A stretch of 64,000 bases of DNA from Dehalococcoidia bacterium (GCA_022827095.1 JAJDTP010000005.1:647919-711918); one strand, 5' to 3'. Shown: positions 14,238 through 51,993, numbered from the stretch's first letter. The notes: generated from the sequence alone by a model not told the origin. Numbers and translations are program-made.

Positions 14238-14315
14238 CGGAAACCGACGCCGCGTTTCCGGCTTCGATGTTGATAACATGAGAATCGCCCGCGTTGCAGC
14301 ACGTAAACAGTCCTG

Positions 14316-19478: not shown

Positions 19479-19629
19479 CACAAAGGCAACGGCCCGACTG
19501 GATCGGCAGTGTTTCGCGTCAGGTGGTTTCTTTGCATGGATGGACGGGAATTTCGGACGCAAAAGATGCCTGTATTCCGGATGTCCCCGGAACGACGAGT
19601 CATAAACCGCTTAAATCGCAACGCTACGG

Positions 19630-31298: not shown

Positions 31299-31351
31299 CG
31301 TGGTCGGGACCTCCTCTACAGGGAATTACTGATTGTGGTGGTGCGCGCAAT

Positions 31352-32395: not shown

Positions 32396-32639
32396 GGCAG
32401 CATTCCCCTCTGCATTGGTTGGTCGGCCTGGTGGCCGGTGTCGCTAAGGTGTGTTGGTTGTGCTGTCGAACGTAGCGTCGTCCAACTCAGGGGTTGAAGG
32501 CGGTTACCTCGAATCCAGTATCGCCCGGTTTTGACGAGCGTTCACCGAAGTCGTGGTGTCGCTGGATTGTACCAGTAACCACCAGCGTCGGCGAGAGCAC
32601 AAAAGTGTCGCAGGTTAGATGGGCTCGGTTCTCCTGGGC

Positions 32640-33737: not shown

Positions 33738-33804
33738 CAGTTTCTCCCCTCAAGCTTTCCGAAATCATGATCGGGTCGGCATGGAACCGGCGAAGCTCCT
33801 TGAT

Positions 33805-34725
33805 CTATTGGTTGTAACGGATGCGCGGATCGACGTAGGCGTAGGTGATGTCGGTGATGATGTTGATCCCGACGTACAGCAGCGCGAACAGCATGACCAC
33901 GGCCTGCACCACGATATGATCCTTCGAGTTGATGGCTTCGATCACCATCAGACCCAGCCCAGGCCAGGCGAAAACGGTTTCGATGACCACGGAGCCCGTG
34001 ATAAGGATCGCAAAGATCAGGCTGAAGTACGTCAGCGGGCCGATGAGTGCGTTTCGGAAGCAGTGCTTCCACACGATCTTCCATTCGGGGATGCCTTTGA
34101 TGCGGGCGAGCTTCACGTACTCCGTATCCAGCACGTCCAGCATCGAAGATCGGGTCAACCGCATGATCGCCGCCACGTTGTAGTAGCCCAACGCGAAGCC
34201 GGGCAGAATGATATGTTTGATGCCGCCTTTGCCCGACGTCGGCAGCCAGCCCAACTGGACGGCAAACACCCACATTAAAATCAGGCCCACGGCGAAGGTC
34301 GGCGCCGACTGACCTAATATGGCGAACATCTTGCCACCGGCATCGAACCAGGAGTCTTTTTTCACCGCCGATAAAACCCCGATGGGGAAGGCGATTATCC
34401 CCGTGACCACCAGGGCGAACGCCGAAAGCTGAATAGTGGCCGGCAACCGTTCCGCAATCAGCTCGAGCACCGGCCGATCCCAGCGGAAGGACACTCCCAA
34501 GTCGCCGGTCAGCAGGCGCCGCATATAGGTGAAGTACTGGACATGGAGGGGCTTGTCGAGGCCCCAGCTTTGGCGCAGTCGTTCGATCTGCTCTTTGCCG
34601 GCCTCGTCGTCCAGGATGGCTGCCAGCGGGTCGCCCGCCACACGTGACAGGGCGAAGACGATGAGGCTGATGACGAAGACCGCCAACAGTCCTTGCAATA
34701 TCCTCAGCACGATAAATCGTTGCAT
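33805..34725 (-). CDS. ABC transporter permease (OppB/DppB-like)
   Basis: MQRFIVLRILQGLLAVFVISLIVFAL... is the canonical OppB/DppB N-terminus. The EAA block reads YVKLARIKGIPEWKIVWKHCFRNA. Confidence 0.9.
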   Translation of the reverse strand: MQRFIVLRILQGLLAVFVISLIVFALSRVAGDPLAAILDDEAGKEQIERLRQSWGLDKPLHVQYFTYMRRLLTGDLGVSFRWDRPVLELIAERLPATIQLSAFALVVTGIIAFPIGVLSAVKKDSWFDAGGKMFAILGQSAPTFAVGLILMWVFAVQLGWLPTSGKGGIKHIILPGFALGYYNVAAIMRLTRSSMLDVLDTEYVKLARIKGIPEWKIVWKHCFRNALIGPLTYFSLIFAILITGSVVIETVFAWPGLGLMVIEAINSKDHIVVQAVVMLFALLYVGINIITDITYAYVDPRIRYNQ

Positions 34726-34822
34726 GATTCTGACCCCACTTACTGTCCCGTCGGTATCGCGGTATCCGTAGATCCCCCCGAATCTTCAATGTGCGGCAAT
34801 TGCCAGACCACGCGGGCATGCG

Positions 34823-36757: not shown

Positions 36758-36844
36758 GCTCTCTCCGAAGTTCTCGTCCCGTTGGAAATTTTTGGCCTGA
36801 TCGGCATACGGCAGCGGCGGATGCAACTACCCAATAGCGAAGGC

Positions 36845-36874
36845 AATATAGGAAAATTGGTCAAGCCGAGTCAA
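36845..36874 (-). promoter_or_regulatory. Sigma-70-like promoter for SBP paralog 1
   Basis: The minus strand reads TTGACT-N18-TATATT (-35 at 36874-36869, -10 at 36850-36845), about 90 nt upstream of the start codon. SBP paralog 2 has the same architecture upstream. Confidence 0.5.
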
Positions 36875-37116
36875 ACGTGCCATAAGGATAATTATGTACG
36901 AAAACCGTAACGAATTGACAAAACTTCGCCATAACACGCAATGTGATTGCGAAAAAGATCACAAAATGACAGTGATGGTTGCGGGATGCTAACGGCCTGT
37001 CATCACCATAATCAATACATAATATAATCAATTACGATGTATCAGTGTCAGCGATAATGCGATCGCCGTGAGAGCTTCCAATAATACGGTGCCATGGTTC
37101 GCGTGATCCGATACGC

Positions 37117-37155
37117 GGCCCCTGGCGCCACGATTTAGGCGCAGCGTCAGGGGCC
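37117..37155 (-). terminator. Stem-loop about 25 nt downstream of the SBP paralog 2 stop (possible terminator)
   Basis: GGCCCCTG/CAGGGGCC (8 bp) plus an inner GCGCC/GGCGC (5 bp). No clear U-tract follows on the minus strand. Confidence 0.4.
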
Positions 37156-37179
37156 ACTGTCAGGACATGAGGAGCGGCT

Positions 37180-39108
37180 CTACTCGCGCACGCCCTTCAC
37201 GTATTCGAGGTAGATGAAGCTGCCCTGGTTCGGGCCCAGGAAGACGTACTCGGCCACCACGTCCGGGTCGATGGTTGCGCTGATGGGCATCGTCCATCCG
37301 GGGATGGTTCCCACTTCGTAGAAGATTTCGTCAGAAACCTTCTTCCAGTCCGTGGTAGCGTCGGCCTCGTTCAGGGCTCGCAGAGCCTTGTTCTTGTGCT
37401 CCTGGATGTTGTCGCTGGTATACGCCCGGAAGAACCGCTCGGCACTGAAGTAGAAGTGCACGCGAGTGTCGATGGGCGCCGCAGGTCCCCGGAACCCGTA
37501 GATGCAGCAGTCCGTGTCGAGGCCGCGGTAGTGGTTCCGCCAGTTTGAGAATTCGATGGGATCCAGCTCCGGCTCGAGGCCAATTTCAGACCAGAACTTG
37601 GCCATGGCTTCCATCTGGTCGGGCAGTTCCGGCACGCCACCCAGGGGGAACACCGGCACACGGAAGGAGAACCCTTCCGGATATCCGGCCTCGACCAGCA
37701 ATTCGCGGGCCTTGTCCGGGTCATACCCGTAGAGGTCGTCCCATTGGGCCTCCCAGTCGGGGTTGAAACCGCCGGGGAAATCAGGCACCAGCGTGGCAAC
37801 CCATTGCCGCCCGCCAACGCCACCGTAGATGGCTTCGTTGATCTGGTCACGGTCGATGGCCTTGTTCATCGCCATGCGGACCAACTTGCCGGACTCGGTC
37901 GGCTCGTTCCAGGGCATCATTTCGTCACGCGCGGCCACAATGTCGTAGCTCGTCCGGATCTCGGCCTGGTCTTCCGCGGACACGTCGGTGGGCACGCCAG
38001 CCTCTCCGGTGGAGAAGTACATCCCGCCGAACAGGGCAAAAGCGGTAACCGACCGGACGGAACTGTCCACCACCTCGAGGCCGTCATCGACAGCATCCTG
38101 GATCAAGGCCCGGTTGATGGTTGCGATGTGGCCTTCGCGAGCTTGCATGATGGCCAGGCGCGTGGCGGACTCGCGCACATCCTTGATTTCGATCTCGGCG
38201 AAATCGGGGTTGACGCGCCAGTGGTCGTAGTCCACTCGACGCCATTCCCAGCCCACGCCTTCTTCGAAGCTCACGTATTCGTATGGGCCGGTACGGGACG
38301 ATTTTTGCGCGACCGCGTCCCGACTTTGAATGCAATAGTTCAGGGGCAGGCCGGCTTCGTTGTTTCCGTAATCGGCTTCGCCGTTCGGGCAGTTTTGATC
38401 CCACTGGGCCTTGCTGCTGTGCGGGATGCCCCGGTAGCCGGAGTACCAGTAGATGAAGTCGACGGCGGGGCGGCGCTTCATATGGATGTTCACTTCGTAG
38501 TCGTTGACTATTTCCACCTCGCCGCCCGGGTCACTGCGGAAGTAGTCGGAGTAGGAGGCGCGGCAATCCGGGTTGGTGTAGTACGCCATGGAGTGCACCA
38601 CGTCCTGGGCGGTGAACTCGCCCCAGTCGTCATGCCAGCGGACGCCCTGGCGGAGCTTGAAGTTCCAGGTCCGGCCATCGTCACTGATGCCCCATTCCGT
38701 CGCCAGCATGGGTTCGTATGACCCGTCGAAGCGGCTGGCGTCCACCATCCACTCCGCGGACATGCGGTAATTGAGAACGCCGGAACCGGTTACCTCGCAG
38801 TCCAGCATCGACTCCAGCGAGGGCGGGTCTGCTACCAGGATCAGCCGGTCTGTCCCCAGTTCCCCTTCGGTATCGGGAGCCAAGGTTGGCCGGGGCGTGG
38901 CCTGTAGCACAGACGCGCGTTGCGTTGGGGTGGGCAACGCGTCCCCGGCAGTCGGTGTGTTGGTCGCCCGTACCTGTGGAGCCGCAGTTGGCTGTTCAAC
39001 CGGAGCGGGGGGCTCCTCAGCACCACCACAGGCCACCACCACTGTGGCACACGCCAGTGCGGCGATCAATGCGATATTCGGAAATTTCAAGAACCATTTC
39101 GCTCGCAT
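37180..39108 (-). CDS. ABC transporter substrate-binding lipoprotein, family 5, paralog 2
   Basis: MRAKWFLKFPNIALIAALACATVVVACGG (lipobox). GGAGA lies 7 nt upstream of the ATG at 39108. The body is collinear and highly similar to paralog 1 at both protein and nucleotide level. Confidence 0.85.
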   Translation of the reverse strand: MRAKWFLKFPNIALIAALACATVVVACGGAEEPPAPVEQPTAAPQVRATNTPTAGDALPTPTQRASVLQATPRPTLAPDTEGELGTDRLILVADPPSLESMLDCEVTGSGVLNYRMSAEWMVDASRFDGSYEPMLATEWGISDDGRTWNFKLRQGVRWHDDWGEFTAQDVVHSMAYYTNPDCRASYSDYFRSDPGGEVEIVNDYEVNIHMKRRPAVDFIYWYSGYRGIPHSSKAQWDQNCPNGEADYGNNEAGLPLNYCIQSRDAVAQKSSRTGPYEYVSFEEGVGWEWRRVDYDHWRVNPDFAEIEIKDVRESATRLAIMQAREGHIATINRALIQDAVDDGLEVVDSSVRSVTAFALFGGMYFSTGEAGVPTDVSAEDQAEIRTSYDIVAARDEMMPWNEPTESGKLVRMAMNKAIDRDQINEAIYGGVGGRQWVATLVPDFPGGFNPDWEAQWDDLYGYDPDKARELLVEAGYPEGFSFRVPVFPLGGVPELPDQMEAMAKFWSEIGLEPELDPIEFSNWRNHYRGLDTDCCIYGFRGPAAPIDTRVHFYFSAERFFRAYTSDNIQEHKNKALRALNEADATTDWKKVSDEIFYEVGTIPGWTMPISATIDPDVVAEYVFLGPNQGSFIYLEYVKGVRE

Positions 39109-39198
39109 ATGCATTCTCCAAGGATTGTTTGGTACGAAATCCTCACACCTGTGCGGCCACCGGAAACGGCGGCACACCCCCCTGCGATTTGCGTTCGC

Positions 39199-39228
39199 AA
39201 TATAAGCAATATCAATTGCAGCCGTCAA
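39199..39228 (-). promoter_or_regulatory. Sigma-70-like promoter for SBP paralog 2
   Basis: The minus strand reads TTGACG-N18-TATATT (-35 at 39228-39223, -10 at 39204-39199). Confidence 0.5.
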
Positions 39229-39492: not shown

Positions 39493-40338
39493 TTACATGA
39501 CGGCTTCCGCAATCCGGTCGATTTCGTCGAGGGCACTGGCATTGGTCGTGTCCCCCAGCCTGATGATCACGCGGTTGGCGCCAGCGTCTTCGAAGCGGGA
39601 GAGCGTATCGCGATCCGGCGCCTGACCGAATACCGTGATGTCGATACTGGATGGATCCCGGCCCGAGGCCTCGGCCAGTTCGTCAATAGCAGCCTTGCCG
39701 GCTGCGATCTGGTCGGGGCTTGCCGCGGTGGGCATCCAGCCGTCACCCCATCGGGCGACGCGGCGAAAGACGTTGCGCGCGTTGCCGCCCAGCAGCACCG
39801 GAGGGCCGCCCTCCTGGGCGGGTTTCGGATTGCACTGAACCGGCGGGAAGTCGTAGTACTGGCCGTGGTACTCCGCGGCGTCCTGGGTCCACAGCGCGCG
39901 CATCACCTCGATGGCCTCGCGGGCCTGAGTCCACCGGTGGTCGAAATTGCCGCCCATGATTTCGGTTTCCTCGCGCAACCATCCCGTGCCGATGCCCAGG
40001 ATGAATCGGCCACCGGAAAACCTGTCGAGGGTCGATATGGCCCCGGCGAGGACCAGGGGGTTGCGTTCTGGGATGAGCGTAATGCCCGTGCCCAACTTGA
40101 TCCGGCTCGTCACCGCCGACGCCCGGGCGAGCCCTATATAAGGATCTCCCATGTCCGCCATGTACGGGGGAATGGAGCCGTCCGGCGAACCGGGATATTT
40201 CGATTCGGAATGGACCGGCATCACCGGATGCTCGGGTAGCCATATTGACTCGAACCCGGCGCTTTCAGCCCGCGCAGCGATATCCGCCACGTCTATCGAG
40301 TTGGTCGAGATTGACATATTCAAGCCGATGTCCATCAT
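39493..40338 (-). CDS. LLM-class F420-dependent oxidoreductase
   Basis: MMDIGLNMS...AESAGFESIWLPEHPVMP...LGTGITLIPERNPLVLA...GRFILGIGTGW is the LLM/F420-dependent pattern. GGAGG lies just upstream of the ATGATG at 40338/40335. Confidence 0.8.
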   Translation of the reverse strand: MMDIGLNMSISTNSIDVADIAARAESAGFESIWLPEHPVMPVHSESKYPGSPDGSIPPYMADMGDPYIGLARASAVTSRIKLGTGITLIPERNPLVLAGAISTLDRFSGGRFILGIGTGWLREETEIMGGNFDHRWTQAREAIEVMRALWTQDAAEYHGQYYDFPPVQCNPKPAQEGGPPVLLGGNARNVFRRVARWGDGWMPTAASPDQIAAGKAAIDELAEASGRDPSSIDITVFGQAPDRDTLSRFEDAGANRVIIRLGDTTNASALDEIDRIAEAVM

Positions 40339-40492
40339 TGCCTCCAGGTTCAGCAGCGAATCCCGCGTTGGGCCGGGATGATAGCACTGCGCCCGACGCG
40401 CGTCCATGCGGCGTGAACGCCCCCGATGATATACTTTCGAATGGACTTATCTTCTTAACAGTCAATGCACGTTCATAATCAGGAACCCTGCT

Positions 40493-41806: not shown

Positions 41807-44800
41807 ATGCCAACTTTTGACGTGGTTTCCAGCCGGGTCAGTTTCCCGGAGCTCGATGCCGAGATCCTCGATTACTGGAAGGAGCGCGACGTCTTCCGCC
41901 GGTCCATTGACGACCGGCCCGACGCTCCCCTCTTCATGATGTACGAGGGCCCGCCCACCGCCAACGGCAGCCCCGGCATCCACCACGTTCTGGCCCGCGT
42001 GTTCAAGGACGTCATCTCCCGCTACCGAACCATGAAAGGCTGCCGGGTGATCCGCAAGGGAGGCTGGGATACCCACGGCCTGCCCGTGGAACTGCAGATT
42101 GAGCAGGAGCTTGGCCTGTCGTCCAAGCGGGAGATCGAAGAATTCGGCATCGCCGAGTTCAACCGGCGTTGCCGGGAGAGCGTTTTCCGGTACGTCAAAG
42201 AATGGGAGGTGATGACGGACCGCATCGGTTACTGGGTCGATATGGACGATCCCTACGTGACCCTGGAAAACGATTACATCGAGACCGGCTGGTGGATACT
42301 CAAACAGTTGTGGGACCGCGGCCTGCTTTACCAGGACCGGCGTGGTGCTCCCCACTGCCCGCGCTGCGTCTCCAGCCTGTCCTCGCACGAGGTGGCCCTG
42401 GGGTACCGGGAGAACACGCCCGACCCGTCTACCTTCGTGACCTTCGAGGCGACCGAATGGCTTGATGGCGCGACGCCCGAGATTCCTTTCTACTTCTTGG
42501 CGTGGACCACGACACCGTGGACGTTGCCCGGCAACACCGCCCTGGCGGTCAGCGCCGATGCGGATTACTCAATCGTTGAAACCACCAATAGCGCGGGCGA
42601 GACGGTCCGGATGGCGCTGGCCACCGCGCTGCTGGGCATCCTGCACGATGATTACACCGTGACGCGCGAGGTGAAAGGCAGCGACCTGATTGGCCTGTCC
42701 TATCGCCCGCTTTACGACGCCTCCGAATACGGCACGCTGATCCGCCAATTCCTGGCGAACGAAGACGGGCAGATCTCCCTGGAAGACGTCGACTCCTACG
42801 CGACGAGGGTCGTATCGGCCGACTTCGTGAGCATGGACGACGGCAGCGGAATCGTGCATATCGCCCCGGCCTTCGGCGACGAAGACCTGGGCCTGGGTCG
42901 CGAGCACCAACTGGCGTTCGTGCAGCCCGTCGACCTCCAGGGGGTTATCACCGGCAGCTATCCCTTTGCCGGCAAGTTCGTGAAGGACGCCGACCCGGAA
43001 ATCCTTGCCGACCTCGAATCCCGCGGCCTGCTGTACCACCAGGGCGTTTACCGCCACACCTATCCGTTCTGCTGGCGTTGTGACACACCGCTGCTCTACT
43101 ACGCGAAGACCTCGTGGTACATCCGGACCACCGCGGTGAAAGACCAATTGGTAGGCAACAACTCCCGGATCAACTGGTATCCCGAGCACATCCGGGAGGG
43201 CCGGTTCGGGGAATGGCTGCGCAACAACGTGGACTGGGCAATCTCCCGGGAACGCTACTGGGGGACCCCGATACCCATCTGGCAATGCGACGTGTGCGGA
43301 GGGATGGATTGCGTCGGCGGTGTGGAGGAATTGTCGCAGCGATGTGGGCGGGCACTGGATGATCTCGATCTGCACCGTCCTTACGTTGACGACATGGCCT
43401 GGCCGTGCCAATCCGATGGCTGCGATGGCATGATGCGGCGCATTCCCGAGGTGATGGACTGCTGGTTCGACTCCGGCATGATGCCGTTGGCCCAATGGCA
43501 CTACCCGTTTGAGAACCGCGACATCGACACGGACGGCCGGCTGCCCGCCGACTACATCTGCGAAGCCGTCGACCAAACCCGGGGCTGGTTCTACAGCCTG
43601 CACGCCCTTTCGACCCTGCTCAAGGACGACGTTGCATACCGGAACGTAATCTGCCTCGGGCTGATCCTGGACGGGCGCGGCCGGAAGATGAGCAAGCGAC
43701 TGGGGAACATCGTCGAACCGGACAGCATCCTGGACGCCCACGGCGCAGACGCGCTGCGGTGGTACCTGTTCACCGCGTCGCACCCGGGCGAACCGCGGCG
43801 CTTTTCCGACCGACTGGTGCAGCAGACGCTCCGCCAGGTGCTGCTCACGCTGTGGAACGTCTACTCCTTCTTTACCAACTACGCGAACATCGACGAATTT
43901 GAGCCGTCGCAGATACCCGAAGGGTGGCGCCCTGAAGCCGAGTTGGACCGCTGGATCCTGGCGGAGCTCAACCAACTGGTACAGGTCGTGGACGATCACC
44001 TGGACAACTACAATCCCACCGACGCGGGTCGCCGGGTCGCCGAGTTCATCGACGTGCTCTCGAACTGGTACGTCCGCCGCTCTCGCCGGCGTTTCTGGAA
44101 GTCCGAAAACGACGCAGACAAGCTCGGCGCATACGCGACGCTATACAGTTGTCTGACCACGGTTGCCCGGCTGATGGCGCCGCTGGCTCCCTTCGTGTCG
44201 GAGCAGATGTACCGCAACCTGGAGTTGCGCTACCAGCCCGACGCGCCCGACAGCGTGCATCTATCCGCCTACCCGGTGGCCGACGATTCGCTGATCGACC
44301 GTCCCATCATGGACGCGACCCGCCTGGCGATCCGCGTGTCCAGCCTGGGCCGGGCGGCCCGCAGCAAGGCTGGCCTCAAGGTGCGCCAGCCTTTGGCCGA
44401 AGTCGTGGTCAAAACGCGAACGGATGCTGAGTTGCAATACCTGGGCCAGGTGCGCCTCCAAATTCTTGAAGAGTTGAACATCAAGGAATTGCGGCCGGCG
44501 GAAGGCGCTGGGGACCTCTATGTCCAGGCCCGGGAGTTGGCGGACGATGATGGCGACGCGGTGGTTTCAGTCGCCGGCTATTCGGCTGCCCTGGACTCCG
44601 GCTACATGGTGGCGGTGGACGCTCGCATTTCGCCGGAACTGGCCGACGAGGGGCTGGCTCGCGAGTTGGCCCACCGGATCCAGAACCTGCGCAAGGGCGC
44701 CCGTTTCGAGATCACCGATCGCATCGTCACCTATTACGACGGCCCCGATGACGTGGCCCGCGTAATGGCCGTGCATGGCGACTACATCAAGCAGGAAACC

Positions 44801-44911
44801 CTGAGCGACGACCTTCTGGATTCGGTTCCGGAGGACACCGCGAAATCCGAGACGGCGCAGATCGAAGGCATGGAAGTCACGCTCGGCGTGCGCCGCTTGA
44901 ACGGTGCCTGA
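41807..44911 (+). CDS. ileS: Isoleucine--tRNA ligase
   Basis: 1034 aa. HIGH-type PGIHHVLA and KMSKRLGN (KMSKS) motifs, plus the CP1 editing-domain block WTTTPWTLPGNTA. Confidence 0.95.
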   Translation: MPTFDVVSSRVSFPELDAEILDYWKERDVFRRSIDDRPDAPLFMMYEGPPTANGSPGIHHVLARVFKDVISRYRTMKGCRVIRKGGWDTHGLPVELQIEQELGLSSKREIEEFGIAEFNRRCRESVFRYVKEWEVMTDRIGYWVDMDDPYVTLENDYIETGWWILKQLWDRGLLYQDRRGAPHCPRCVSSLSSHEVALGYRENTPDPSTFVTFEATEWLDGATPEIPFYFLAWTTTPWTLPGNTALAVSADADYSIVETTNSAGETVRMALATALLGILHDDYTVTREVKGSDLIGLSYRPLYDASEYGTLIRQFLANEDGQISLEDVDSYATRVVSADFVSMDDGSGIVHIAPAFGDEDLGLGREHQLAFVQPVDLQGVITGSYPFAGKFVKDADPEILADLESRGLLYHQGVYRHTYPFCWRCDTPLLYYAKTSWYIRTTAVKDQLVGNNSRINWYPEHIREGRFGEWLRNNVDWAISRERYWGTPIPIWQCDVCGGMDCVGGVEELSQRCGRALDDLDLHRPYVDDMAWPCQSDGCDGMMRRIPEVMDCWFDSGMMPLAQWHYPFENRDIDTDGRLPADYICEAVDQTRGWFYSLHALSTLLKDDVAYRNVICLGLILDGRGRKMSKRLGNIVEPDSILDAHGADALRWYLFTASHPGEPRRFSDRLVQQTLRQVLLTLWNVYSFFTNYANIDEFEPSQIPEGWRPEAELDRWILAELNQLVQVVDDHLDNYNPTDAGRRVAEFIDVLSNWYVRRSRRRFWKSENDADKLGAYATLYSCLTTVARLMAPLAPFVSEQMYRNLELRYQPDAPDSVHLSAYPVADDSLIDRPIMDATRLAIRVSSLGRAARSKAGLKVRQPLAEVVVKTRTDAELQYLGQVRLQILEELNIKELRPAEGAGDLYVQARELADDDGDAVVSVAGYSAALDSGYMVAVDARISPELADEGLARELAHRIQNLRKGARFEITDRIVTYYDGPDDVARVMAVHGDYIKQETLSDDLLDSVPEDTAKSETAQIEGMEVTLGVRRLNGA

Positions 44912-44917
44912 TCGGGC

Positions 44918-45730
44918 ATGCCGGAACTACCCGAGGTCGAAAACACCCGCCAGTATCTGCTCCGCTCAGGTCTGGCGGGCAGACGTTTGGGCGCGCCGGA
45001 AATCACTTGGGGCAAAACGGTCCACGAGCCCTCGGTGGGCGAGTTCATCGAGGGCGTCGCCGGGCGATGTTTAACGGACCTCCAACGGCGGGGCAAGTAT
45101 CTGATCGCACCGTTGGACGACGACCAGTTCCTGGTCATGCACCTTGGCATGACGGGCAGCCTGCGTATCCACGATGCCCGCCGTGAACCGCCTCCCATGG
45201 TTCGGCATACCTTCCCGCTGGACGATGGGCGGGAGATGCGCTTCATCGATCCCCGCAAGTTCGGCCACCTTTGGCTGCTTCCCGACCCGTCGGGGGCGAT
45301 GCGCAAAATGGGACCCGAACCGTTGGAGCCGGCGTTTACGGTTGACTTACTTGCCAGCGTCCTGGCCGGCCGGAAGGCTCCGATCAAGGCTTTGCTGCTC
45401 GAACAATCGGTGATTGCCGGCTTGGGCAATTTGTACGCCGACGAAGCCTTGTTCCTGTCTGGAATACACCCGGAACGGGCCGCGAATGATCTTGGGGAAG
45501 ACGAAACCAGCGCGTTGCACGCCGCAATTGTCCGGGCGTTGTCCCATTCCGTGGCCGCATACGCGGCCGCACGGGAGGCTGAGTGGCCCGACCCGCCTAT
45601 CGCCCTGTCGCCATGGACGATTCCCAGAGCAACCGATGAGCCCTGTCCCCGATGCTCTGGGGCGATGGCGATGATTCGGGTGCGCGGACGCAGTTCGTGG
45701 CACTGCCCGCTTTGCCAGCCAGCCCGATAA
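44918..45730 (+). CDS. mutM: Formamidopyrimidine-DNA glycosylase (Fpg/MutM)
   Basis: MPELPEVE N-terminus and a C-terminal zinc finger CPRCSG...HCPLCQ. It starts 6 nt after the ileS stop. Confidence 0.9.
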   Translation: MPELPEVENTRQYLLRSGLAGRRLGAPEITWGKTVHEPSVGEFIEGVAGRCLTDLQRRGKYLIAPLDDDQFLVMHLGMTGSLRIHDARREPPPMVRHTFPLDDGREMRFIDPRKFGHLWLLPDPSGAMRKMGPEPLEPAFTVDLLASVLAGRKAPIKALLLEQSVIAGLGNLYADEALFLSGIHPERAANDLGEDETSALHAAIVRALSHSVAAYAAAREAEWPDPPIALSPWTIPRATDEPCPRCSGAMAMIRVRGRSSWHCPLCQPAR

Positions 45731-45826
45731 GGGCAGCTCGGGGCGTCGACGTTGCAGTCTCCGCCACCGTGTCGAATCGGCCCGTGCACGCGCGATGCAA
45801 CTGCCGATGGCGGGATCGGCGGTTTG

Positions 45827-45856
45827 TTGACGGCATGGCAATTCCGCCCGTAAACT
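45827..45856 (+). promoter_or_regulatory. Candidate sigma-70-like promoter for the 45952 gene
   Basis: TTGACG (45827-32), 18-nt spacer, TAAACT (45851-56). Confidence 0.35.
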
Positions 45857-45951
45857 GTGATTTGTAAGCGGATTTTACCGCCGGGAAAACTGCCGGCTAT
45901 CCGCGTTGATGGCTTACAAGATACGGCAATTGTCGTTGGAGGCTTTTTATC

Positions 45952-48063
45952 ATGGCCGGTTACCGCAAGCATGAAGCGCAGGAATGGGCCTGGCAAAGTT
46001 TGAAGGGGCAATGGACCACGCTGGTCACGCCCTTCACGCCGGACAACCAGGTGGATACTGAAGGTCTCCGCCGGAACATTCGTCACGTTCAGAGCCTGGG
46101 CGTACGCGGCGGCGGCTGCACCTGGAACATGGGCGAATTCTGGAGCCTGACCGAGGGCGAGCGCCGCCTCGTAATGGACACGGTGGCCGACGAAGCGGCC
46201 GGCCATTGGCTCATCGGCGCCCACGTCACCGACACCTCCCTGCGTGAGAGTATTGCGCTGGCCCAGCACGCCGAACTCCGGGGTTTCGACCTCCTGATCA
46301 TTGCTCCCTCGTACATGGTGACCAAGACCGAGGACCAGGTCGTCGATTTCGTGCGCCAGGTCGCCGACAACACCGAATTGGCGATGATGTTCTACAACTC
46401 TCCCCAGTTCGGCATCACCATCAGCCCCCAGGGTCTGAAGCGGTTGTGCGCCATCCCCAACGTGGTTGGTGTAAAGGAGGCCAGCTTCAACCAGCAGATT
46501 TCCATCGAAACCCACCTGCTGGTCGGTCGCGACGCGATAATCAGCACGCCGGACGAGTGGATATTCCACAAGGCCCGGGAGTTGGGCTTCCACCAGCAGG
46601 TGATGTTTGCCAACACGTCCGACTGGCGGTTCGACACGCCGCGCCACAACTACTACACCCAGTTCATCGACCGCGCCACCACGGGTGACTTGGATGTGGA
46701 CTTCTACAACCACTACCTGAAGGACATCAAAGCGCTGTCCGACAAGTGGTGGGGCGGCACCATGAAAAAGACCGGCGGCGCGCTCCCCGTCGCCATGTGC
46801 AAGGCGTGGGGCGAGATGATGGGCATGGCCGGCGGAAGCGTCCGCGCGCCTTTGCAGGACCTGACCCACGAAGAGAAGTCCGAACTGTGGAGCGAGTTGG
46901 AGCCTTTGCTTCCTCGTGCCGGCGCCCCGGCAGAGCCAGCCCGCGAGGTAATCCACGGCCGCCCGCATGCGCCGTGGCTCAACGGCAACGGCGTCCGTGA
47001 CGGCCGGAGCGGGCTTTCCGAGTCGGGCATGATGCTGCTGGTGAGCGCCCAGAACAAGGCCGAGGCGATGGAAGCGGACCGGGGCGGCGCCGACATCATC
47101 GACCTGAAAAACCTCCAGGAAGCTCTGGTGGGCTCGGCTCATCCCAGCCTCGTTCGGGAAGTACGGGAGATCATCTCGCCGGAAAAGCACGTGAGCGTTA
47201 CTCTGGGCGTCGTTCCCAACCAACCGGGCACCGTCGCCATGGCGGTGCACGCCGCCGCGTTGATGGATGCGACTTCGGTCAAAGTCGGGTTCCAGGTCGC
47301 GGACTACGAAACCGCCGTTGAGGTGCTGCGGGAATCCCGCGCCGCCATCGGGAACGCGGATACCAAGCTGATCGGCTCCCTGTTCGCCGACAACCTGCTG
47401 TTCGAGGGCGGACTCGATCCCCACCTCATGGTCAGGCTGGCTATCGACGGCGAATGCGACGGGTTCCTGATTGACACCCTGACCAAGGACGGCCGCAACC
47501 TGTTCGACTTCATGCCCGAGCCGGTGCTGCGGGATATGGTCATGCACGCGAAACAGGAAGGACTGAGCACCGCGCTGAGCGGACACTTGAAGCTGGAGAA
47601 CCTTGACGAACTGGCGCGCATCAACCCGGATATCGTCGGCGTTCGCGGCGCCGTGTGTTCCAGCGGAGAGCGAGATCGCGCCGTCGCCTGGGAAGCCGTG
47701 GCCTATTTCAAGGAGCAACTTGACCTGCGCAAGAGCGGCGTGATCGACGTGCGCGCTCCCGTGGGCGTTGCCCCGGGTGGCAACGGGTACGCCAATGGCA
47801 ATGGCAACGGCAATGGACAGGGCAGCGGTTGGACCGTTATCGATGGCCGAGGCAAGAACTGCGCTGGAGTCATCGCCGCCCTGAGCCGCCAGATGGAGTA
47901 CGACCGCACTTCATTTATCGAGGCCATACTCCACGACGCCCTGAACATCTATGACGTCGTCTATTGGGCCGAACAGGCCGGGCATCGCCTGCTGACCCAG
48001 CGCAAGGAAAACGACGGCACCCTGCGCGTGCTGATCGAGCCCTACGGCAACGGCAATCACTGA
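45952..48063 (+). CDS. Tri-domain fusion protein: DapA/NAL-family class I aldolase (aa ~1-320), MfnB-type (5-formylfuran-3-yl)methyl phosphate synthase (DUF556, aa ~360-590), Gly/Asn linker and a TusA-like domain (aa ~627-697)
   Basis: GGAGG RBS then ATG. The DapA-like part has MFYNSP (Tyr148) and VVGVKEAS (Lys175). The MfnB-like part has MLLVSAQ...GGADIIDLKN (Asp384/Lys386), SVKVGF (Lys444), FLIDTLTKDGRNLFDFM (Asp508), ALSGH and DIVGVRGAVC. The tail reads WTVIDGRGKNCAGVIAAL...GTLRVLIEP. It is a single uninterrupted ORF. Confidence 0.85.
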   Translation: MAGYRKHEAQEWAWQSLKGQWTTLVTPFTPDNQVDTEGLRRNIRHVQSLGVRGGGCTWNMGEFWSLTEGERRLVMDTVADEAAGHWLIGAHVTDTSLRESIALAQHAELRGFDLLIIAPSYMVTKTEDQVVDFVRQVADNTELAMMFYNSPQFGITISPQGLKRLCAIPNVVGVKEASFNQQISIETHLLVGRDAIISTPDEWIFHKARELGFHQQVMFANTSDWRFDTPRHNYYTQFIDRATTGDLDVDFYNHYLKDIKALSDKWWGGTMKKTGGALPVAMCKAWGEMMGMAGGSVRAPLQDLTHEEKSELWSELEPLLPRAGAPAEPAREVIHGRPHAPWLNGNGVRDGRSGLSESGMMLLVSAQNKAEAMEADRGGADIIDLKNLQEALVGSAHPSLVREVREIISPEKHVSVTLGVVPNQPGTVAMAVHAAALMDATSVKVGFQVADYETAVEVLRESRAAIGNADTKLIGSLFADNLLFEGGLDPHLMVRLAIDGECDGFLIDTLTKDGRNLFDFMPEPVLRDMVMHAKQEGLSTALSGHLKLENLDELARINPDIVGVRGAVCSSGERDRAVAWEAVAYFKEQLDLRKSGVIDVRAPVGVAPGGNGYANGNGNGNGQGSGWTVIDGRGKNCAGVIAALSRQMEYDRTSFIEAILHDALNIYDVVYWAEQAGHRLLTQRKENDGTLRVLIEPYGNGNH

Positions 48064-48105
48064 TCACCGTGAGCCAACCCGGCGGCACAATCAACGATTA
48101 TCACC

Positions 48106-48127
48106 GGGGCGGGAGTGATCCCGCCCC
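48106..48127 (+). other. GC-rich hairpin 43 nt after the fusion-gene stop (weak terminator candidate or RNA-stability element)
   Basis: GGGGCGGGA-GUGA-UCCCGCCCC, a 9-bp perfect stem. No U-tract follows directly (AAACGATTCCCCTTTC). Confidence 0.4.
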
Positions 48128-48257
48128 AAACGATTCCCCTTTCTGGTTCGTTGACCCGGTTTTCGGCCCGCCATATAATCCCCGCAGACCGACGCCAAGC
48201 GGGATACGCCGCGAATTCTAGTGCCCGCTCCAATGGCGTCGGCGTTGGAGGGCTGAT

Positions 48258-49178
48258 ATGGCTCGTTTCGACTACCTGGAGCCGCAATCGTTGGATGAGG
48301 CGCTCGGGATGCTGGAGAAGCACGGCGCCAATTCACGATTGGTGGCTGGCAGCACCGATTTCCTGGTCCGCTGGCGCACGGGTGTTTGGCGACCCGAGAT
48401 TGTTGTGTGTATGCAGCACGTTCCCGGATTGGATGGTTTGCATTTCAACGATGACGACGGCCTGTCCATCGGCGCGATGACCACGGTGCAGGACATCGAG
48501 CAGAATAGCATCGTTCGGTCGCGTTACCCCGCGCTGGCGGCCGGGGCCACCGCCTTCGCCGGCGTGCAGGTACGCAATCTCGCCACCGTGGTCGGCAACG
48601 TGTGCAACGCCTCGCCGGCGGGCGACACCCTGCCCGCGTTGCTGGCTTACGACGCCCAATGTCGCATAGTGGGTTCAAATGGGGAGCGCTGGCTCCCGCT
48701 CACCGAAGTGTTCGTGGGGCCGGGTCAAACCGCCCTGGCCGCCGGCGAGATCATGACGGAGATCCGGTTGCCGACTCCGCCGCCGAACTCCGGCGGACTG
48801 TACATCAAGCACAGCCCGCGCGGCGCGATGGACATATCAGCCGTAGGCGCGGCTTCGGTGGTGAGCATCGGATCCGACGGGAACTGCGCGTCGGTCCGGA
48901 TCGCGCTGGGCGCGGTTGCCCCGACGCCGATGCGGGCCTTTGGCGCCGAGGGCCGTTTGGTTGGTCAGCCCCCGACCGACGACAATGTCGCCGAATCGGC
49001 GCGGTTGGCGGCCCAGGCGTCACGGCCCATCGCCGATGTGCGCAGCGGCGCTGAATATCGCCGGGAAATCGCCCAGGTTCTTGCCGAACGCACCCTGCGA
49101 CACGCCGCAGACACTGCCGTCGGAGGCGTAGCCGACTTTGACGATATCCGCCGATTGGCCGTTCAGACCACCTGGTAA
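48258..49178 (+). CDS. Xanthine dehydrogenase/CO dehydrogenase family FAD-binding subunit (CoxM-like)
   Basis: FDYLEPQSLDEALGML...RLVAGSTDFLV...VRNLATVGGN-like block (VRNLATVVGNVCNASPAGD). Confidence 0.9.
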   Translation: MARFDYLEPQSLDEALGMLEKHGANSRLVAGSTDFLVRWRTGVWRPEIVVCMQHVPGLDGLHFNDDDGLSIGAMTTVQDIEQNSIVRSRYPALAAGATAFAGVQVRNLATVVGNVCNASPAGDTLPALLAYDAQCRIVGSNGERWLPLTEVFVGPGQTALAAGEIMTEIRLPTPPPNSGGLYIKHSPRGAMDISAVGAASVVSIGSDGNCASVRIALGAVAPTPMRAFGAEGRLVGQPPTDDNVAESARLAAQASRPIADVRSGAEYRREIAQVLAERTLRHAADTAVGGVADFDDIRRLAVQTTW

Positions 49179-49199
49179 CCGGCCCGCGAGGTTGATGAC

Positions 49200-49676
49200 A
49201 TGAAACAGCCGCTCAATCTGAACATCAACGGCGAAAACCGGCTGATGCTCGTGGAACCATACTATTCCCTGCTGGATTGCCTGCGCGACGAAGCGCAGTT
49301 GACCGGCGCCAAGAAGGGCTGCGACGAAGGCGACTGCGGAGCCTGTACCGTGTTGATGGACGGCAAACCAGTGACTTCCTGCCTGGTGTTGGCCCACAGC
49401 GCCCACGATGCCGCCATCACTACCATCGAGGGTCTGGCTGGCGTGGATGGTCTCAGTCCCGTCCAGAAGGCATTCGTGGAGCACGGGGGCCTGCAGTGCG
49501 GGTTCTGCATCCCGGGACTGATCATGTCGGCCACGGGGTTCCTGCAGGACAATCCTGACCCAACCGAGGAGGACGTCCGCTTCGCCATCGGCGGCAATTT
49601 GTGCCGGTGCACGGGCTATCAACGAGTGGTTGAAGCGGTCATGGCCGCGGCCCAGGAAATCAGGGAAACCCGCTGA
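49200..49676 (+). CDS. (2Fe-2S)-binding subunit of a molybdenum hydroxylase (CoxS-like)
   Basis: GCDEGDCGACTV and CGFCIPG...GNLCRCTGY cysteine clusters; 158 aa. Confidence 0.9.
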   Translation: MKQPLNLNINGENRLMLVEPYYSLLDCLRDEAQLTGAKKGCDEGDCGACTVLMDGKPVTSCLVLAHSAHDAAITTIEGLAGVDGLSPVQKAFVEHGGLQCGFCIPGLIMSATGFLQDNPDPTEEDVRFAIGGNLCRCTGYQRVVEAVMAAAQEIRETR

Positions 49677-49710
49677 TCGTTTCGCTCCGCCAGCGATGGA
49701 GGCAGATACA

Positions 49711-51993
49711 ATGACAACGCAATTCAAAGTTTTGGAGCGCAACCACCCTCGCGTCGATGCGCACGACAAGGTCACCGGGCGTGCCGCCTACGCCTCTGAC
49801 GTGTACCTGCCCGGCATGTTGGCCTGCAAACTGCTGCCCAGCACGCGAAACCATGCCCGAATTGTCCGGCTGGACATCAGCAAGGCGGCCTCCCATCCGG
49901 GCGTCAGGTGTGTCATCACCGGCACGGATTTTCCCGACATCCGGTACGGCTCCGGCGCGCTGCGGGACAGGTACGTCATGCCGCGCGAGGTGGTCAACTT
50001 CGTGGGTGAGCCCATCGCCGCGGTGGCCGCGGACGACGAAGCGACGGCGCAGGAAGCCATCGAGTTGATTGAGGTCGAATACGAAGACTTGCCGTCCGTG
50101 GTCAATCCGCTAACCGCCATCGGTTCGGACGCGGCCACGGTGCACCCGGAACTGGAAGAATACGAGGGGTACGGGTTCACGCTGGGGCACAACGTCAGCA
50201 CTCTGCTGGACGCTGACCGGGGCGACGTCGACCAAGCGTTCCGCGACGCCGACGTAGTGGTGGAGGACGTTTATCGCTCCCAGGGGATCAACCAGGGTTT
50301 CCTGGAGCCCATGGCTTGCGTAGCCGATGTGGAAGCCAACGGCCGTCTGGTCGTCTACGCATCCACACAGGGCCCATACCAGATCCGCGCCGCGTTGGCC
50401 GGCGTGCTTGAAGTTCCGGTGTCGCGAATCCGGGTGGTCCCCATGGAACTGGGCGGCGGTTTTGGGGCCAAATTGCGGCTGGCGTTCGAGGCTTTCCCGG
50501 CGCTACTGGCGATGAAAACGGGCCGACCCGTCAAATTGGTCAACACCCGCGAGGAAGTGTTCACCATGAACGGCCCGCGGCTTCCGGTGACCAACTACAT
50601 CCGGTCGGGCGTCATGCGCGATGGCACGATTACCGCCCGTGAAGCCTACACGATCTTTGACGTGGGGGCGTATCTGGGCGCCGGTCCCAACTCCGGGATC
50701 GGTCACGGCATCGGAGCCTACCGGGTGCCCAACTTCCGACTGCGTTCCTACGGCGTTTACACCAATAAGATTTACGTCGGTTCGTACCGCGCTTCTGGCG
50801 TGGCCGACATGACCTTCGCCGTGGAATCCCACATGGACCGCATCGCGCATGAAATCGGGATGGACCCATACGACCTGCGCGTGAAGAATGCCCTGCGCGA
50901 GGGCGACGTCTCCGTTAGCGGAGCGGTAGTACCCACCAACGGGCTGATGGAAACGCTCGAGGCCATCAAGGAAAAGATCGACTGGCCGCGAGACCTAGAA
51001 GACGGCCACGGCGTGGGTCTGGCGCTGTGCGAGTGGAGGAGTGGCAGCGGCCCGTCCACGGCGTCGATCAGCGTCAACGACGACGGCACGGTGAGCCTGC
51101 TCACGGGTTCCGTTGACATCTCTGGCAGCGATACCTCCCTGGCGGCTATCGCCGCGGAGGCCCTGGGTATACCAATGGACCAAGTGGTGGTAGCCAAGCG
51201 CGACACGGACCTGGCGCCATACACCGGGCAGTCCGGCGGCAGCCGCATCGTGTACAGCCAGGGCACCGCGGTGCAACGCGCCGCCGAGGACACGGTCCAA
51301 AAGCTCGTTGCCCTGGCCGCGGAACGACTGGGTGTCCCTGAAGAAGCTCTGGACTGCGAGGATGGTCGAGTCTACGTCATGGACAACGAACCGCAGGGAC
51401 TGACGTTCGCGCAACTGGCGGCCGCAAGCATCACGTCACGCGGCGGCCCCATCATCGGCACCGCGTCGCTGTCCAGCATGCCATACACCCCGGTATTCGC
51501 CGCCCAGGCAGCCGAGGTCAAGGTCGACCGCAAAACCGGGCAGGTCAGGTTGCTCCGCTACATCCAGGCCCAGGACGTGGGGACTCCGATCAATCCCATG
51601 GCCGTGGAAGGGCAACTGGACGGGGGGGTCGTCCAGGGGATTGGCCGCGCCCTGACGGAGGATCAGCAGTTCGACCCGGAAACTGGCGCGGTCCGCAATC
51701 CCTCGTTTGCCTCGTATCTGATGCCGTTGGCAATCGACCTGCCGGAACTGGAGAACGTGCTGATCAACGTGCCGGCGCCCGATGGGCCGTTTGGAGCCCG
51801 GGCCGTGGCCGAACCGCCGGGCTTTGGTCCGCCGGCCGCCATCGCCAACGCGGTGTACGATGCGGTGGGCGTGCGTATCAAGGAGTTGCCGCTGTCGGGC
51901 GAACGTGTGCTCTCCGCGTTGAACGGCCAGAACGCGGACATCGATTTCGACGTGGATGCGCTTCGCCGCGCCGAGGGTATAGCCGCCGACTGA
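49711..51993 (+). CDS. Molybdopterin-binding large subunit of a xanthine dehydrogenase/aldehyde oxidase family enzyme (CoxL-like)
   Basis: GGAGG lies 8 nt upstream of the ATG at 49711. RVDAHDKVTGRAAYASDV is the typical N-terminus. Other family blocks: GGGFGAK, SYRASG, AEPP. The active-site loop is not the CODH form I VAYRCSFR type. Confidence 0.9.
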   Translation: MTTQFKVLERNHPRVDAHDKVTGRAAYASDVYLPGMLACKLLPSTRNHARIVRLDISKAASHPGVRCVITGTDFPDIRYGSGALRDRYVMPREVVNFVGEPIAAVAADDEATAQEAIELIEVEYEDLPSVVNPLTAIGSDAATVHPELEEYEGYGFTLGHNVSTLLDADRGDVDQAFRDADVVVEDVYRSQGINQGFLEPMACVADVEANGRLVVYASTQGPYQIRAALAGVLEVPVSRIRVVPMELGGGFGAKLRLAFEAFPALLAMKTGRPVKLVNTREEVFTMNGPRLPVTNYIRSGVMRDGTITAREAYTIFDVGAYLGAGPNSGIGHGIGAYRVPNFRLRSYGVYTNKIYVGSYRASGVADMTFAVESHMDRIAHEIGMDPYDLRVKNALREGDVSVSGAVVPTNGLMETLEAIKEKIDWPRDLEDGHGVGLALCEWRSGSGPSTASISVNDDGTVSLLTGSVDISGSDTSLAAIAAEALGIPMDQVVVAKRDTDLAPYTGQSGGSRIVYSQGTAVQRAAEDTVQKLVALAAERLGVPEEALDCEDGRVYVMDNEPQGLTFAQLAAASITSRGGPIIGTASLSSMPYTPVFAAQAAEVKVDRKTGQVRLLRYIQAQDVGTPINPMAVEGQLDGGVVQGIGRALTEDQQFDPETGAVRNPSFASYLMPLAIDLPELENVLINVPAPDGPFGARAVAEPPGFGPPAAIANAVYDAVGVRIKELPLSGERVLSALNGQNADIDFDVDALRRAEGIAAD

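Follow-up and report, generated by a model that had tools for sequence, protein, structure and literature searches.

The window analysed here, a 64,000-nucleotide (nt) stretch of DNA from a Dehalococcoidia bacterium (GCA_022827095.1 JAJDTP010000005.1:647919-711918), contains on its plus strand a complete open reading frame (ORF) at 45952-48063, stop codon included, that starts with ATG, has no internal stop and encodes a protein of 703 amino acids (aa). Judged by its sequence, this ORF encodes a conserved enzyme module of three components in single-chain form and comes from a SAR202 bacterium of ocean or sponge. SAR202 bacteria are reported to be abundant in the dark ocean (PMC5395668) and to occur as sponge symbionts (PMC6306507). 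From the N-terminus to the C-terminus, the protein consists of an atypical aldolase-type domain derived from DapA, a domain of the MfnB family and a small TusA-like domain; in alignments, each of the three retains the key catalytic or functional residue of its family. In SAR202 and its Chloroflexota relatives, as in Thermoplasmata and related archaea, these parts stay together, whether as a single chain or divided over two or three genes, and they very probably act in one process.

A fusion state that varies while the parts themselves stay together is classic evidence that the parts function together, and the module has several such states. In two lineages known from unlabelled metagenomic contigs, with GC contents of 30% and 64%, an aldolase-like gene lies immediately 5ʹ of a gene encoding the MfnB-type and TusA-like parts. 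At the junction, the two genes are either separated by 12 nt that include an AAGGAG ribosome-binding site or joined by a 4-bp ATGA overlap of stop and start codons. Proteins of these split forms include P0123, which is aldolase-like only (331 aa, 64% identical), and P0124, which has only the MfnB-type and TusA-like parts (330 aa, 61% identical). Small ORFs that follow the split genes (103 and 93 aa in L074, 122 aa in L077) were considered as extra components and rejected, being unconserved between the lineages and missing from the window. In a third form, from soil, a 256-aa MfnB-type gene is followed by a separate 90-aa TusA-like gene. Relatives of this soil MfnB-type protein number nearly a thousand, and those with names come from non-methanogenic archaea, namely Thermoplasmata, Marsarchaeota and Thermoprotei.

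The archaeal loci add further arrangements. Consecutive MfnB-type, TusA-like and aldolase-like genes occur on the same strand in L088-90, L097-100, L111-114 and L105, with Thermoplasmata among them. Separate MfnB-type and TusA-like genes face a convergent aldolase-like gene in L094-96, and an MfnB-TusA fusion faces a convergent aldolase-like gene in the archaeal-clade contigs L091-93. Loci of the Marsarchaeota and Thermoprotei types have the MfnB-type and TusA-like genes with no adjacent aldolase-like gene; Marsarchaeota carry an aldolase-like protein elsewhere in the genome (P0395). Archaeal aldolase-like proteins are 50-54% identical over their full length to the N-terminal domain of the 703-aa protein and share with it the motifs WNMGEFWSL, FYNSPQFG, KEASFN, QQVMFANTSDWRFD and KYWGELMGMAGG, and their genes are true orthologues of this domain. 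The bacterial and archaeal MfnB-type parts are 60-62% identical, and the TusA-like parts, in which the cysteine is conserved, share about 30% identity. In every locus long enough to judge, the MfnB-type and TusA-like parts are adjacent; this pair is the invariant core of the module. The bacterial–archaeal identity of the three parts, 30-62%, indicates that the whole module was probably transferred between the domains of life. A first-pass annotation of the window had proposed that the three parts work together, an idea that is now strongly backed, as the genes stay next to each other in both split and unfused forms from unrelated lineages.

The fused form itself is widespread. Among 5.8 billion proteins searched there are at least 500 homologues, and the 120 that match best are all full length, are 68-95% identical and have an identical domain set; a precomputed match to the TusA family PF01206 is present in a number of the fusion homologues. 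In species-representative genomes the fusion occurs at 73 loci, nearly all in metagenome-assembled genomes of Dehalococcoidia, SAR202 or Chloroflexota and including several complete chromosomes, and at one of these loci the fusion protein is about 99% identical to that of the window. In a HMMER scan of 1.84 billion representatives clustered at 50% identity, the fusion collapses into one cluster, accompanied by the split forms P0123 and P0124. A 20-sequence alignment (A1) has long invariant runs in all three domains that include every catalytic residue and the motif DGRGKxCAG. The first-pass annotation had asked whether this architecture is already common and functionally annotated: common it is, with over 500 sequence clusters, but the names given to the homologues in databases are generic (“dihydrodipicolinate synthase family protein”, “UPF0264 family/DHDPS”). 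A literature search combining MfnB with DHDPS, SAR202 with methanofuran or formylmethanofuran, and UPF0264/DUF556 with this architecture found no paper describing the architecture or the module and no characterised protein of this type, in agreement with the first-pass annotation, which knew of none. SAR202 papers that mention tetrahydromethanopterin presumably refer to annotations of the F420-dependent reductase type.

The reading of the ORF as one uninterrupted protein of three parts was likewise borne out. In a Pfam scan, PF00701 and PF04476 matched above their cut-offs (22.1 and 22.4 bits; the cut-off of PF01206 is 28.6), and the C-terminus is predicted to have a TusA fold. An AlphaFold2 model built from a 73-sequence alignment has a mean predicted local distance difference test (pLDDT) score of 89.9 and contains three confident domains, at residues 1-324, 357-604 and 625-700. 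Every motif and residue number quoted in the first-pass annotation proved correct. These are MFYNSP (146-151, with Tyr148), VVGVKEAS (171-178, with Lys175), GGADIIDLKN (378-387, with Asp384 and Lys386), SVKVGF (442-447, with Lys444), FLIDTLTKDGRNLFDFM (505-521, with Asp508), DIVGVRGAVC (560-569) and NCAG (636-639, with Cys637). The GC contents at the three codon positions of the ORF (0.65/0.43/0.83) match the pattern of the other genes of the window. On the opposite strand, a 978-aa ORF (44782-47718, minus strand) overlaps Fpg and most of the fusion gene in antisense and was rejected as a high-GC artefact that had misled a longest-ORF gene caller.

Upstream of the fusion gene, a GGAGG ribosome-binding site can be read at 45938-45942 (+), 9 nt 5ʹ of the ATG, and GGAGGCT is nearly invariant across 14 aligned upstream regions. 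A consensus scan additionally gave a putative promoter at 45827-45856 (+), about 95 nt 5ʹ of the start codon, in which an 18-nt spacer separates TTGACG from TAAACT; both hexamers are kept upstream in most aligned SAR202 relatives. The promoter-like site and the ribosome-binding site are the only features of the upstream alignment. An Rfam scan of 45000-49000 gave no match to a riboswitch or other known RNA at E values up to 0.1, the thiamine pyrophosphate (TPP) riboswitch included.

The first domain, residues 1-324 (45952-46923, +), is a predicted atypical Schiff-base domain of the class I aldolase type, recognised by Pfam, alignments to DapA, the AlphaFold model and invariant columns. It matches the DHDPS family PF00701 over residues 18-315 (E 9e-29, 100.5 bits), and its model, with a pLDDT of about 95, is a (beta/alpha)8 TIM barrel followed by a C-terminal helical domain that superposes on many DHDPS and NAL structures in Foldseek with a template-modelling (TM) score of about 0.87. 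Lys175 (nt 46474-46476), Tyr148 and Tyr121 align with Lys161, Tyr133 and Tyr107 of DapA and are invariant in all 20 fusion-family sequences of A1; Lys175 is still invariant when distant stand-alone members of the subfamily are added (alignment A6). The Schiff-base lysine and catalytic tyrosine named earlier as hallmarks of the aldolase family are thus retained in the DapA alignments, as are the G-E of GxxGE and the barrel with its helical domain.

Unlike DapA, the domain does not conform to the carboxylate-binding motif G-[ST]-[ST]-G-E. In place of GTTGE it has W58-N59-M60-G61-E62, in which W58, G61 and E62 are invariant among orthologues and position 59 is N, G or A; G43, T44 and T45 of DapA thereby become W58, N/G/A59 and M60. 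In DHDPS and NAL enzymes, structural work has shown that the threonine pair of GTTGE binds the carboxylate of pyruvate and takes part in a proton relay. The position of DapA Arg138, which binds the carboxylate of aspartate semialdehyde, is occupied by Phe153, and the domain also has a 17-residue N-terminal extension and the long invariant QQVMFANTSDWRFD segment that DapA lacks. It scores below every NCBIfam equivalog: DapA TIGR00674 (71.5 vs 206.15 bits), Arch_KDGaldase (37 vs 390), NanA (71.8 vs 281), KdgD (72.9 vs 374) and PRK03620 (93 vs 278). Against solved structures, the family profile finds DapA proteins best (122 bits); DapA itself is typically a tetramer. An attempt to name the subfamily by structure was abandoned, as Foldseek and the family profile gave generic DapA, NAL and YagE matches with no preference for hydratase-aldolases or 2-keto-3-deoxy-(6-phospho)gluconate (KD(P)G) aldolases. 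The domain belongs to a wider “W-x-x-GEFW” subfamily whose stand-alone members are 26-43% identical. One of these, P0136 (38% identical, L082 1-5570), is encoded in a putative transporter-linked cluster, between genes for an Fe-S protein and an ABC-transporter solute-binding protein, so the subfamily also has members outside the module, possibly in catabolic clusters.

The second domain, residues 357-604 (47020-47763, +), is an MfnB-family TIM barrel assigned by Pfam, phmmer, Foldseek and clade analysis. PF04476 has one known function, the step that opens methanofuran and methylofuran synthesis. The domain matches PF04476 (4HFCP_synth) over residues 362-584 (E 6e-55, 186.9 bits), MJ1099 in phmmer (E 1e-42) and structure 4rc1 in Foldseek (TM 0.94, root-mean-square deviation 1.2 Å, 38% identity). 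Asp384, Lys386 (nt 47107-47109), Lys444 and Asp508 correspond to Asp25, Lys27, Lys85 and Asp151 of MJ1099, which form the catalytic set of MfnB, and are invariant in the fusion family and the archaeal clade; the MJ1099 core residues K155, R208, C212 and R217 are kept as well. The earlier claim that the MfnB catalytic residues are retained therefore holds for all four. Its companion, that the domain matches MfnB almost motif for motif, holds for the catalytic core and the fold, but the domain belongs to a separate clade with eight replacements and scores below the equivalog cut-offs.

This module-type clade, whose signature in the 703-aa protein is KNLQEALVGS, is tight, with a mean identity of 67% inside and 34% to 62 other PF04476 representatives, which average 39% among themselves. 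Its specific replacements, in MJ1099 numbering, are P29L, L34V, A36S, A73V, Y83S, L88F, Y122F and A186S. The replaced positions are conserved in 71-94% of the other representatives, and the residues of the clade are found there in 0-13% of the 62. In addition, the loop after the catalytic lysine, KNPxEGSLGA in other family members, reads KNLxE(A/M)x(V/I)GS in the clade. The fusion domain scores 186.6 bits against the NCBIfam MfnB equivalog NF002573 (cut-off 341) and 179.4 against NF002575 (cut-off 304), compared with 424.8 and 323.7 for MJ1099; archaeal module-type members score 184-228 bits on NF002573. By these measures, the domain is a PF04476 member with an intact catalytic core, is not demonstrably equivalent to MfnB and may make a different product. 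It differs from MfnB (MJ1099; PDB 4rc1/4u9p) further in being found in non-methanogens and in always being followed by a TusA-like part, usually with an aldolase-like part as well. A sulfonate (sulfolactaldehyde) substrate was set aside, because the segments shared with MJ1099, DIVGVRGA and an A-L-x-G segment, which would form phosphate-binding loops, are conserved.

The third domain, residues 625-700 (47824-48051, +), is a predicted TusA-fold domain, identified by Pfam, AlphaFold and a family profile, with Cys637 (nt 47860-47862) in the motif DGRGKxCAG. Its PF01206 match is weak (residues 629-696, E 6e-4; 20 bits in the whole protein and 25.6 bits for the isolated domain, below the cut-off), while 12 of 14 members of the small-domain family match PF01206 at E < 0.01, the best at 4.9e-9. 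The family profile finds as its best solved match the Thermoplasma TusA-like protein 1pav (E 3e-5), with the cysteines aligned. In the AlphaFold model, strands 627-631, 655-660, 679-685 and 691-696 and helices 637-650 and 663-675 form the two-layer alpha/beta, beta-alpha-beta-alpha-beta-beta topology of TusA, with Cys637 as the first residue of helix 1. Bacterial and archaeal members all have this cysteine, which aligns with that of TusA. The CPxP motif is absent; the 703-aa protein has C-A-G-V, and all 14 aligned members have C-[A/S/K/T/R]-G. Family alignment and the 1pav match accordingly confirm that a cysteine stands at the usual helix-1 position with CPxP replaced, as the first reading of the sequence had it. 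Like TusA/SirA (Thermoplasma Ta1170, PDB 1pav), the domain is small, has the same fold and carries its cysteine after D-G-x-G at the N-terminus of helix 1; unlike TusA/SirA, it has C-[A/K/T]-G-[V/I/A] for CPxP and is partnered with a triose-phosphate enzyme. No sulfur-relay partner, whether a cysteine desulfurase (IscS/SufS), a rhodanese, DsrE/TusBCD or a ThiF/MoeB-type protein, was found in any of the neighbourhoods read, which comprised the 64-kb window and up to 10 kb of flanking sequence and amounted to about 13 distinct neighbourhoods.

Two linkers, both low in complexity and in frame, connect the domains and vary by whole codons among homologues (A1 columns 326-395 and 648-720). Linker 1, residues 325-356 (46924-47019, +), is predicted to be disordered (pLDDT < 50 for 325-341 and 345-356) and is variable in length and sequence, A1 columns 326-395 being gapped; the gene boundary of the split forms falls here. 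Linker 2, residues 605-624 (47764-47823, +), is Gly/Asn-rich and likewise predicted to be disordered throughout (pLDDT < 50). It is coded in part by an imperfect hexanucleotide repeat, (GGCAAY)n, which TRF places at 47778-47816. The Gly/Asn peptide picked out in the first-pass annotation had been given a start of 47776; its true coordinates are nt 47779-47829, one codon later. Linker expansions include PVT-type repeats in P0097 and P0115 and a stretch of about 70 Gly/Asn/Ser residues in P0033. Disordered linkers of variable length fit a tethered, or swinging, carrier domain.

In SAR202, the gene neighbourhoods change with distance. Relatives with at least 80% identity are colinear for a luciferase-like monooxygenase, ThiD, IleRS, Fpg, the fusion, a CoxM/S/L-type hydroxylase and SbcC, which is ordinary genome colinearity and not functional evidence. 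In a clade of about 65% identity that includes SAR202-labelled loci, acetyl-CoA synthetase lies upstream, spermidine synthase and S-adenosylmethionine decarboxylase lie downstream, and aspartate kinase and homoserine kinase (ThrB) are 4 kb from the fusion. No partner gene is conserved across SAR202 among the neighbourhoods read, and the fusion behaves as a self-contained unit in this group. The earlier observation that no other methanofuran genes are nearby extends to all of the roughly 13 neighbourhoods, none of which has an mfnA/C-F, fwd, fhc or ftr gene.

The best explanation for the module, which we hold tentatively and at somewhat less than an even chance of being right, is that the MfnB-type domain makes a carbonyl compound that the cysteine domain and the aldolase-type domain then process, in that order. 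MfnB, a hexamer, is described as binding a pair of triose phosphates, one of which loses its phosphate to give an enzyme-bound methylglyoxal enol and the other of which is isomerised to dihydroxyacetone phosphate (DHAP), before the two are joined and cyclised (PMC11365854). In the first proposed step, the MfnB-type domain would likewise bind two triose phosphates, with Lys386, Asp384, Lys444 and Asp508 performing MfnB-type chemistry on a methylglyoxal enol and DHAP. The product would be a reactive six-carbon carbonyl phosphate, 4-(hydroxymethyl)-2-furancarboxaldehyde phosphate (4-HFC-P) or a variant of it. In the second step, Cys637 of the tethered TusA-like domain would act on this product, as either a covalent thiol carrier or a persulfide sulfur donor. 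In the third, the aldolase-type domain, through Lys175 and Tyr148, would carry out a C-C forming, C-C cleaving or elimination step with a second carbonyl partner. The aldolase-type domain would thus stand downstream of or alongside the MfnB-type domain and not serve as its supplier of glyceraldehyde-3-phosphate (GAP), and the end product would be a metabolite or cofactor precursor, not necessarily methanofuran.

Speaking for this order are that GAP and DHAP need no dedicated supplier, that the MfnB-TusA pair is the invariant core, that the donor site of the aldolase-type domain lacks its carboxylate-binding threonine pair, and that long, variable, disordered linkers would suit a swinging carrier. 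Several observations weigh against this order of events. The eight family-conserved positions replaced in the MfnB-type clade mean that the product may not be a furan, and no consistent partner gene among the neighbourhoods read points to an end product. The AlphaFold model has a predicted TM (pTM) score of 0.56 and is without confident packing between the domains. Gene order also differs by lineage: SAR202 has the aldolase-like part at the front, Thermoplasmata at the end. The loci read lend no support to a sulfur-carrier role, as no cysteine desulfurase, rhodanese or DsrE partner is near any of them, and we know of no precedent for a TusA fold serving as a thiol carrier of aldehydes. A wider version of the scheme, in which an MfnB-type carbonyl held by a TusA-fold carrier or sulfur donor is coupled by the DapA-derived enzyme to a partner such as aspartate semialdehyde, could provide a non-orthologous route to a dehydroquinate precursor or a new furan- or sulfur-containing cofactor in SAR202 and aerobic non-methanogenic archaea; this is doubtful.

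The alternative that we find most interesting, although it is unlikely, is a route through aspartate semialdehyde. Here the MfnB-type enzyme would make from its bound methylglyoxal enol and DHAP a ketone resembling DKFP (6-deoxy-5-ketofructose-1-phosphate) and not a furan, and the DapA-derived enzyme would condense this ketone or a fragment of it with L-aspartate semialdehyde, replacing the DKFP-forming and ADH-synthase steps of archaea toward 3-dehydroquinate and the aromatic amino acids. In the archaeal aromatic pathway, ADH synthase joins DKFP to aspartate semialdehyde, and DKFP is made from methylglyoxal and a DHAP fragment (PMC4162585), species that MfnB handles (PMC11365854). The module is similar to this entry (MJ1585, MJ0400 and MJ1249) in its possible mode of working only, that is, Schiff-base aldolase chemistry on methylglyoxal- and DHAP-derived units and possibly aspartate semialdehyde; the archaeal enzymes belong to DeoC/FbaB-type aldolase families and not to PF04476 or PF00701, and their link to the module rests on neighbourhoods in few lineages. 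In L097-L099, the module abuts a convergent operon encoding aspartate kinase, Asd, chorismate synthase, EPSP synthase, an archaeal shikimate kinase (TIGR01920, 183 bits vs 126.85) and DHQase/shikimate dehydrogenase, with stops and starts overlapping between aspartate kinase, Asd and AroC. Moreover, in L091 Asd and aspartate kinase share a strand with the aldolase-like gene, homoserine kinase lies inside the MfnB-TusA gene string in L104, the marine SAR202 clade has aspartate kinase and ThrB 4 kb away, and prephenate dehydratase is beside both split forms. DapA, to which the aldolase-type part is closest, naturally uses aspartate semialdehyde as its electrophile, and loss of the threonine pair would fit a methyl-ketone donor. 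However, the shikimate operon is linked to the module in one lineage and is convergent, not co-transcribed, and the window has no aro gene near the fusion, its aspartate kinase and ThrB being 30 kb off. DapA Arg138, the ligand of the aspartate-semialdehyde carboxylate, is Phe153 here, the aspartate-family neighbours could just reflect descent from dapA, and the cysteine domain is left without a role.

Insertion of sulfur is also unlikely. By this account, a persulfide on the TusA-like cysteine would pass sulfur on to the carbonyl that the MfnB-type domain makes, yielding a thiol, a thio-sugar or a sulfur heterocycle. A parallel would be the ThiG-ThiS thiazole synthase, in which a Schiff-base TIM barrel acts on a triose-derived sugar phosphate together with a small sulfur carrier. 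ThiS, however, is a beta-grasp protein with a C-terminal thiocarboxylate, in contrast to the TusA fold and cysteine of the module; there is no sequence relationship between the two systems and no ThiF-type enzyme near the module. The cysteine is invariant and aligned with the persulfide cysteine of TusA, its D-x-x-G-x-x-C context and fold are kept, and the TusA part always directly follows MfnB, but CPxP is lost in all members and the sulfur-relay partners are missing from every neighbourhood, as noted above. CysD and CysN-like GTPase genes stand beside the aldolase-like gene in L091, an adjacency seen in one lineage only. Similarly, the window has a ThiD gene 4 kb upstream of the fusion, as do relatives with identities as low as 73%, but it is separated from the fusion by housekeeping genes and falls within the general colinearity, and no TPP or other riboswitch lies upstream.

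The first-pass annotation had proposed another division of labour, in which the aldolase-type domain cleaves a KDPG/KDG-type acid and hands GAP to MfnB for synthesis of 4-HFC-P and hence methanofuran or methylofuran, with a TusA-like tail, seen there as a sulfur-carrier or regulatory module, in a regulatory role. Both large domains do keep their catalytic residues, and KD(P)G aldolases are members of the same superfamily. Genes linked to tetrahydromethanopterin and methanofuran have been reported in Chloroflexi and non-methanogenic archaea (PMC5020050), which would also suit this model. Nonetheless, it appears distinctly improbable, and channelling of a released aldehyde to MfnB found no specific support: the match to the archaeal KD(P)G aldolase equivalog is 37 bits, against a cut-off of 390, the nearest solved relatives by profile are DapA proteins, and the invariant core of the module is the MfnB-TusA pair. 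GAP is a central metabolite. An aldolase dedicated to supplying it is unlikely because GAP and DHAP need no dedicated supplier, the carboxylate-binding threonine pair is lost, and the MfnB-TusA pair occurs without an adjacent aldolase-like gene. Furthermore, the MfnB-type clade falls below the NCBI MfnB cut-offs and has its own replacements, no mfnA/C-F, fwd, fhc or ftr gene occurs in the neighbourhoods, the literature search found no paper linking SAR202 to methanofuran, and the model leaves the invariant cysteine without a role.

That the parts are merely co-expressed or co-assembled for unrelated reactions, or that the TusA-like part is a structural or regulatory appendage, is highly improbable. 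The model without confident inter-domain packing (pTM 0.56) and the heterogeneous neighbourhoods would agree with it, but the parts have stayed together through independent fusions and fissions in both Bacteria and Archaea, the cysteine motif is invariant and both enzyme parts have diverged from their parent families. An assembly chimera or frameshift joining separate genes, for which the split versions in other lineages might have spoken, is effectively refuted, as the same uninterrupted architecture recurs in hundreds of independent homologues and assemblies, including complete chromosomes, and at 73 genome loci, the linkers stay in frame with whole-codon variation, and codon-position GC is typical of the genome.

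Other genes accompany the module in the window and at related loci. Directly downstream of the fusion in the window are three genes for a CoxM/CoxS/CoxL-type molybdenum hydroxylase (48258-51993, +), which encode the FAD, 2Fe-2S and Mo subunits and have their own promoter-like site at 48151-48179, an 11/12 sigma-70-like match. A functional link to this hydroxylase, such as a role like that of furoyl-CoA dehydrogenase, was rejected, because the synteny holds only at 80% identity or more, where IleRS, Fpg and SbcC are kept equally, and is absent in the 65% clade; the strong promoter-like site of the hydroxylase genes also speaks against it. Marsarchaeota- and Thermoprotei-type loci without an adjacent aldolase-like gene have a gene of the Chlor_dismutase family (PF06778) beside the MfnB-TusA pair (L084-L087, 6197-6910, −; L103, 4572-5330, +; L104, 12507-13268, +; L110, 9165-9866, −). 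Its arrangement varies, being divergent upstream at some loci and same-strand downstream at others, and MoeA is near in L104 and L110. In the Marsarchaeota loci, an 82-aa cysteine-containing ORF (KCKKCG...LCGHRH; L085, 8013-8261, +), for which the precomputed gene table lists no Pfam family, directly follows the TusA-like gene. The CysD (296 bits vs 195) and CysN/EF-1alpha-like GTPase genes of L091 (7467-9505, −) are immediately upstream of and co-directional with the aldolase-like gene, and are themselves preceded by genes for a HAD-family protein, Asd and aspartate kinase.

Farther from the fusion, the window encodes a SagB-family dehydrogenase (17435-19114, −; TIGR03605, 155 bits vs 78) overlapped by a 152-aa ORF (19104-19562, −), and the pair may belong to a locus for peptide modification. 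Genes for two luciferase-like monooxygenases and for CofD, the 2-phospho-L-lactate transferase of F420 biosynthesis, are found at 7916-10144 (+) and 39493-40407 (−) and presumably fit the expansions of flavin/F420 enzymes described in SAR202. A 1242-aa fused hydantoinase A/B of the oxoprolinase type is encoded at 2959-6687 (−), adjoined by genes for a class IV aminotransferase and a fumarylacetoacetate-hydrolase-family protein. At 12151-15545 (+), a homologue of the PhnA-like phosphonoacetate hydrolase (201 bits, below 407) precedes genes for homoserine kinase and aspartate kinase, which are 30 kb away from the fusion, and an oligopeptide-type ABC transporter with two ATPases, two permeases and two family-5 solute-binding proteins (667 and 682 aa) occupies 30318-39228 (−).

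The three folds of the module are known; the combination is new in its distinct MfnB-type clade and distinct DapA-derived subfamily, in its pairing of a TusA fold with a triose-phosphate enzyme, and in its spread over SAR202 and aerobic archaea. A distinct, conserved branch of PF04476 is thereby tied to two unexpected partners in organisms not known for methanofuran (SAR202, Thermoplasmata and Marsarchaeota). Such partners in such organisms point to a new metabolite or cofactor derived from triose phosphates, and perhaps to a TusA fold put to new use. Since one SAR202 polypeptide carries all three activities, a single recombinant protein would allow the question to be tested directly.

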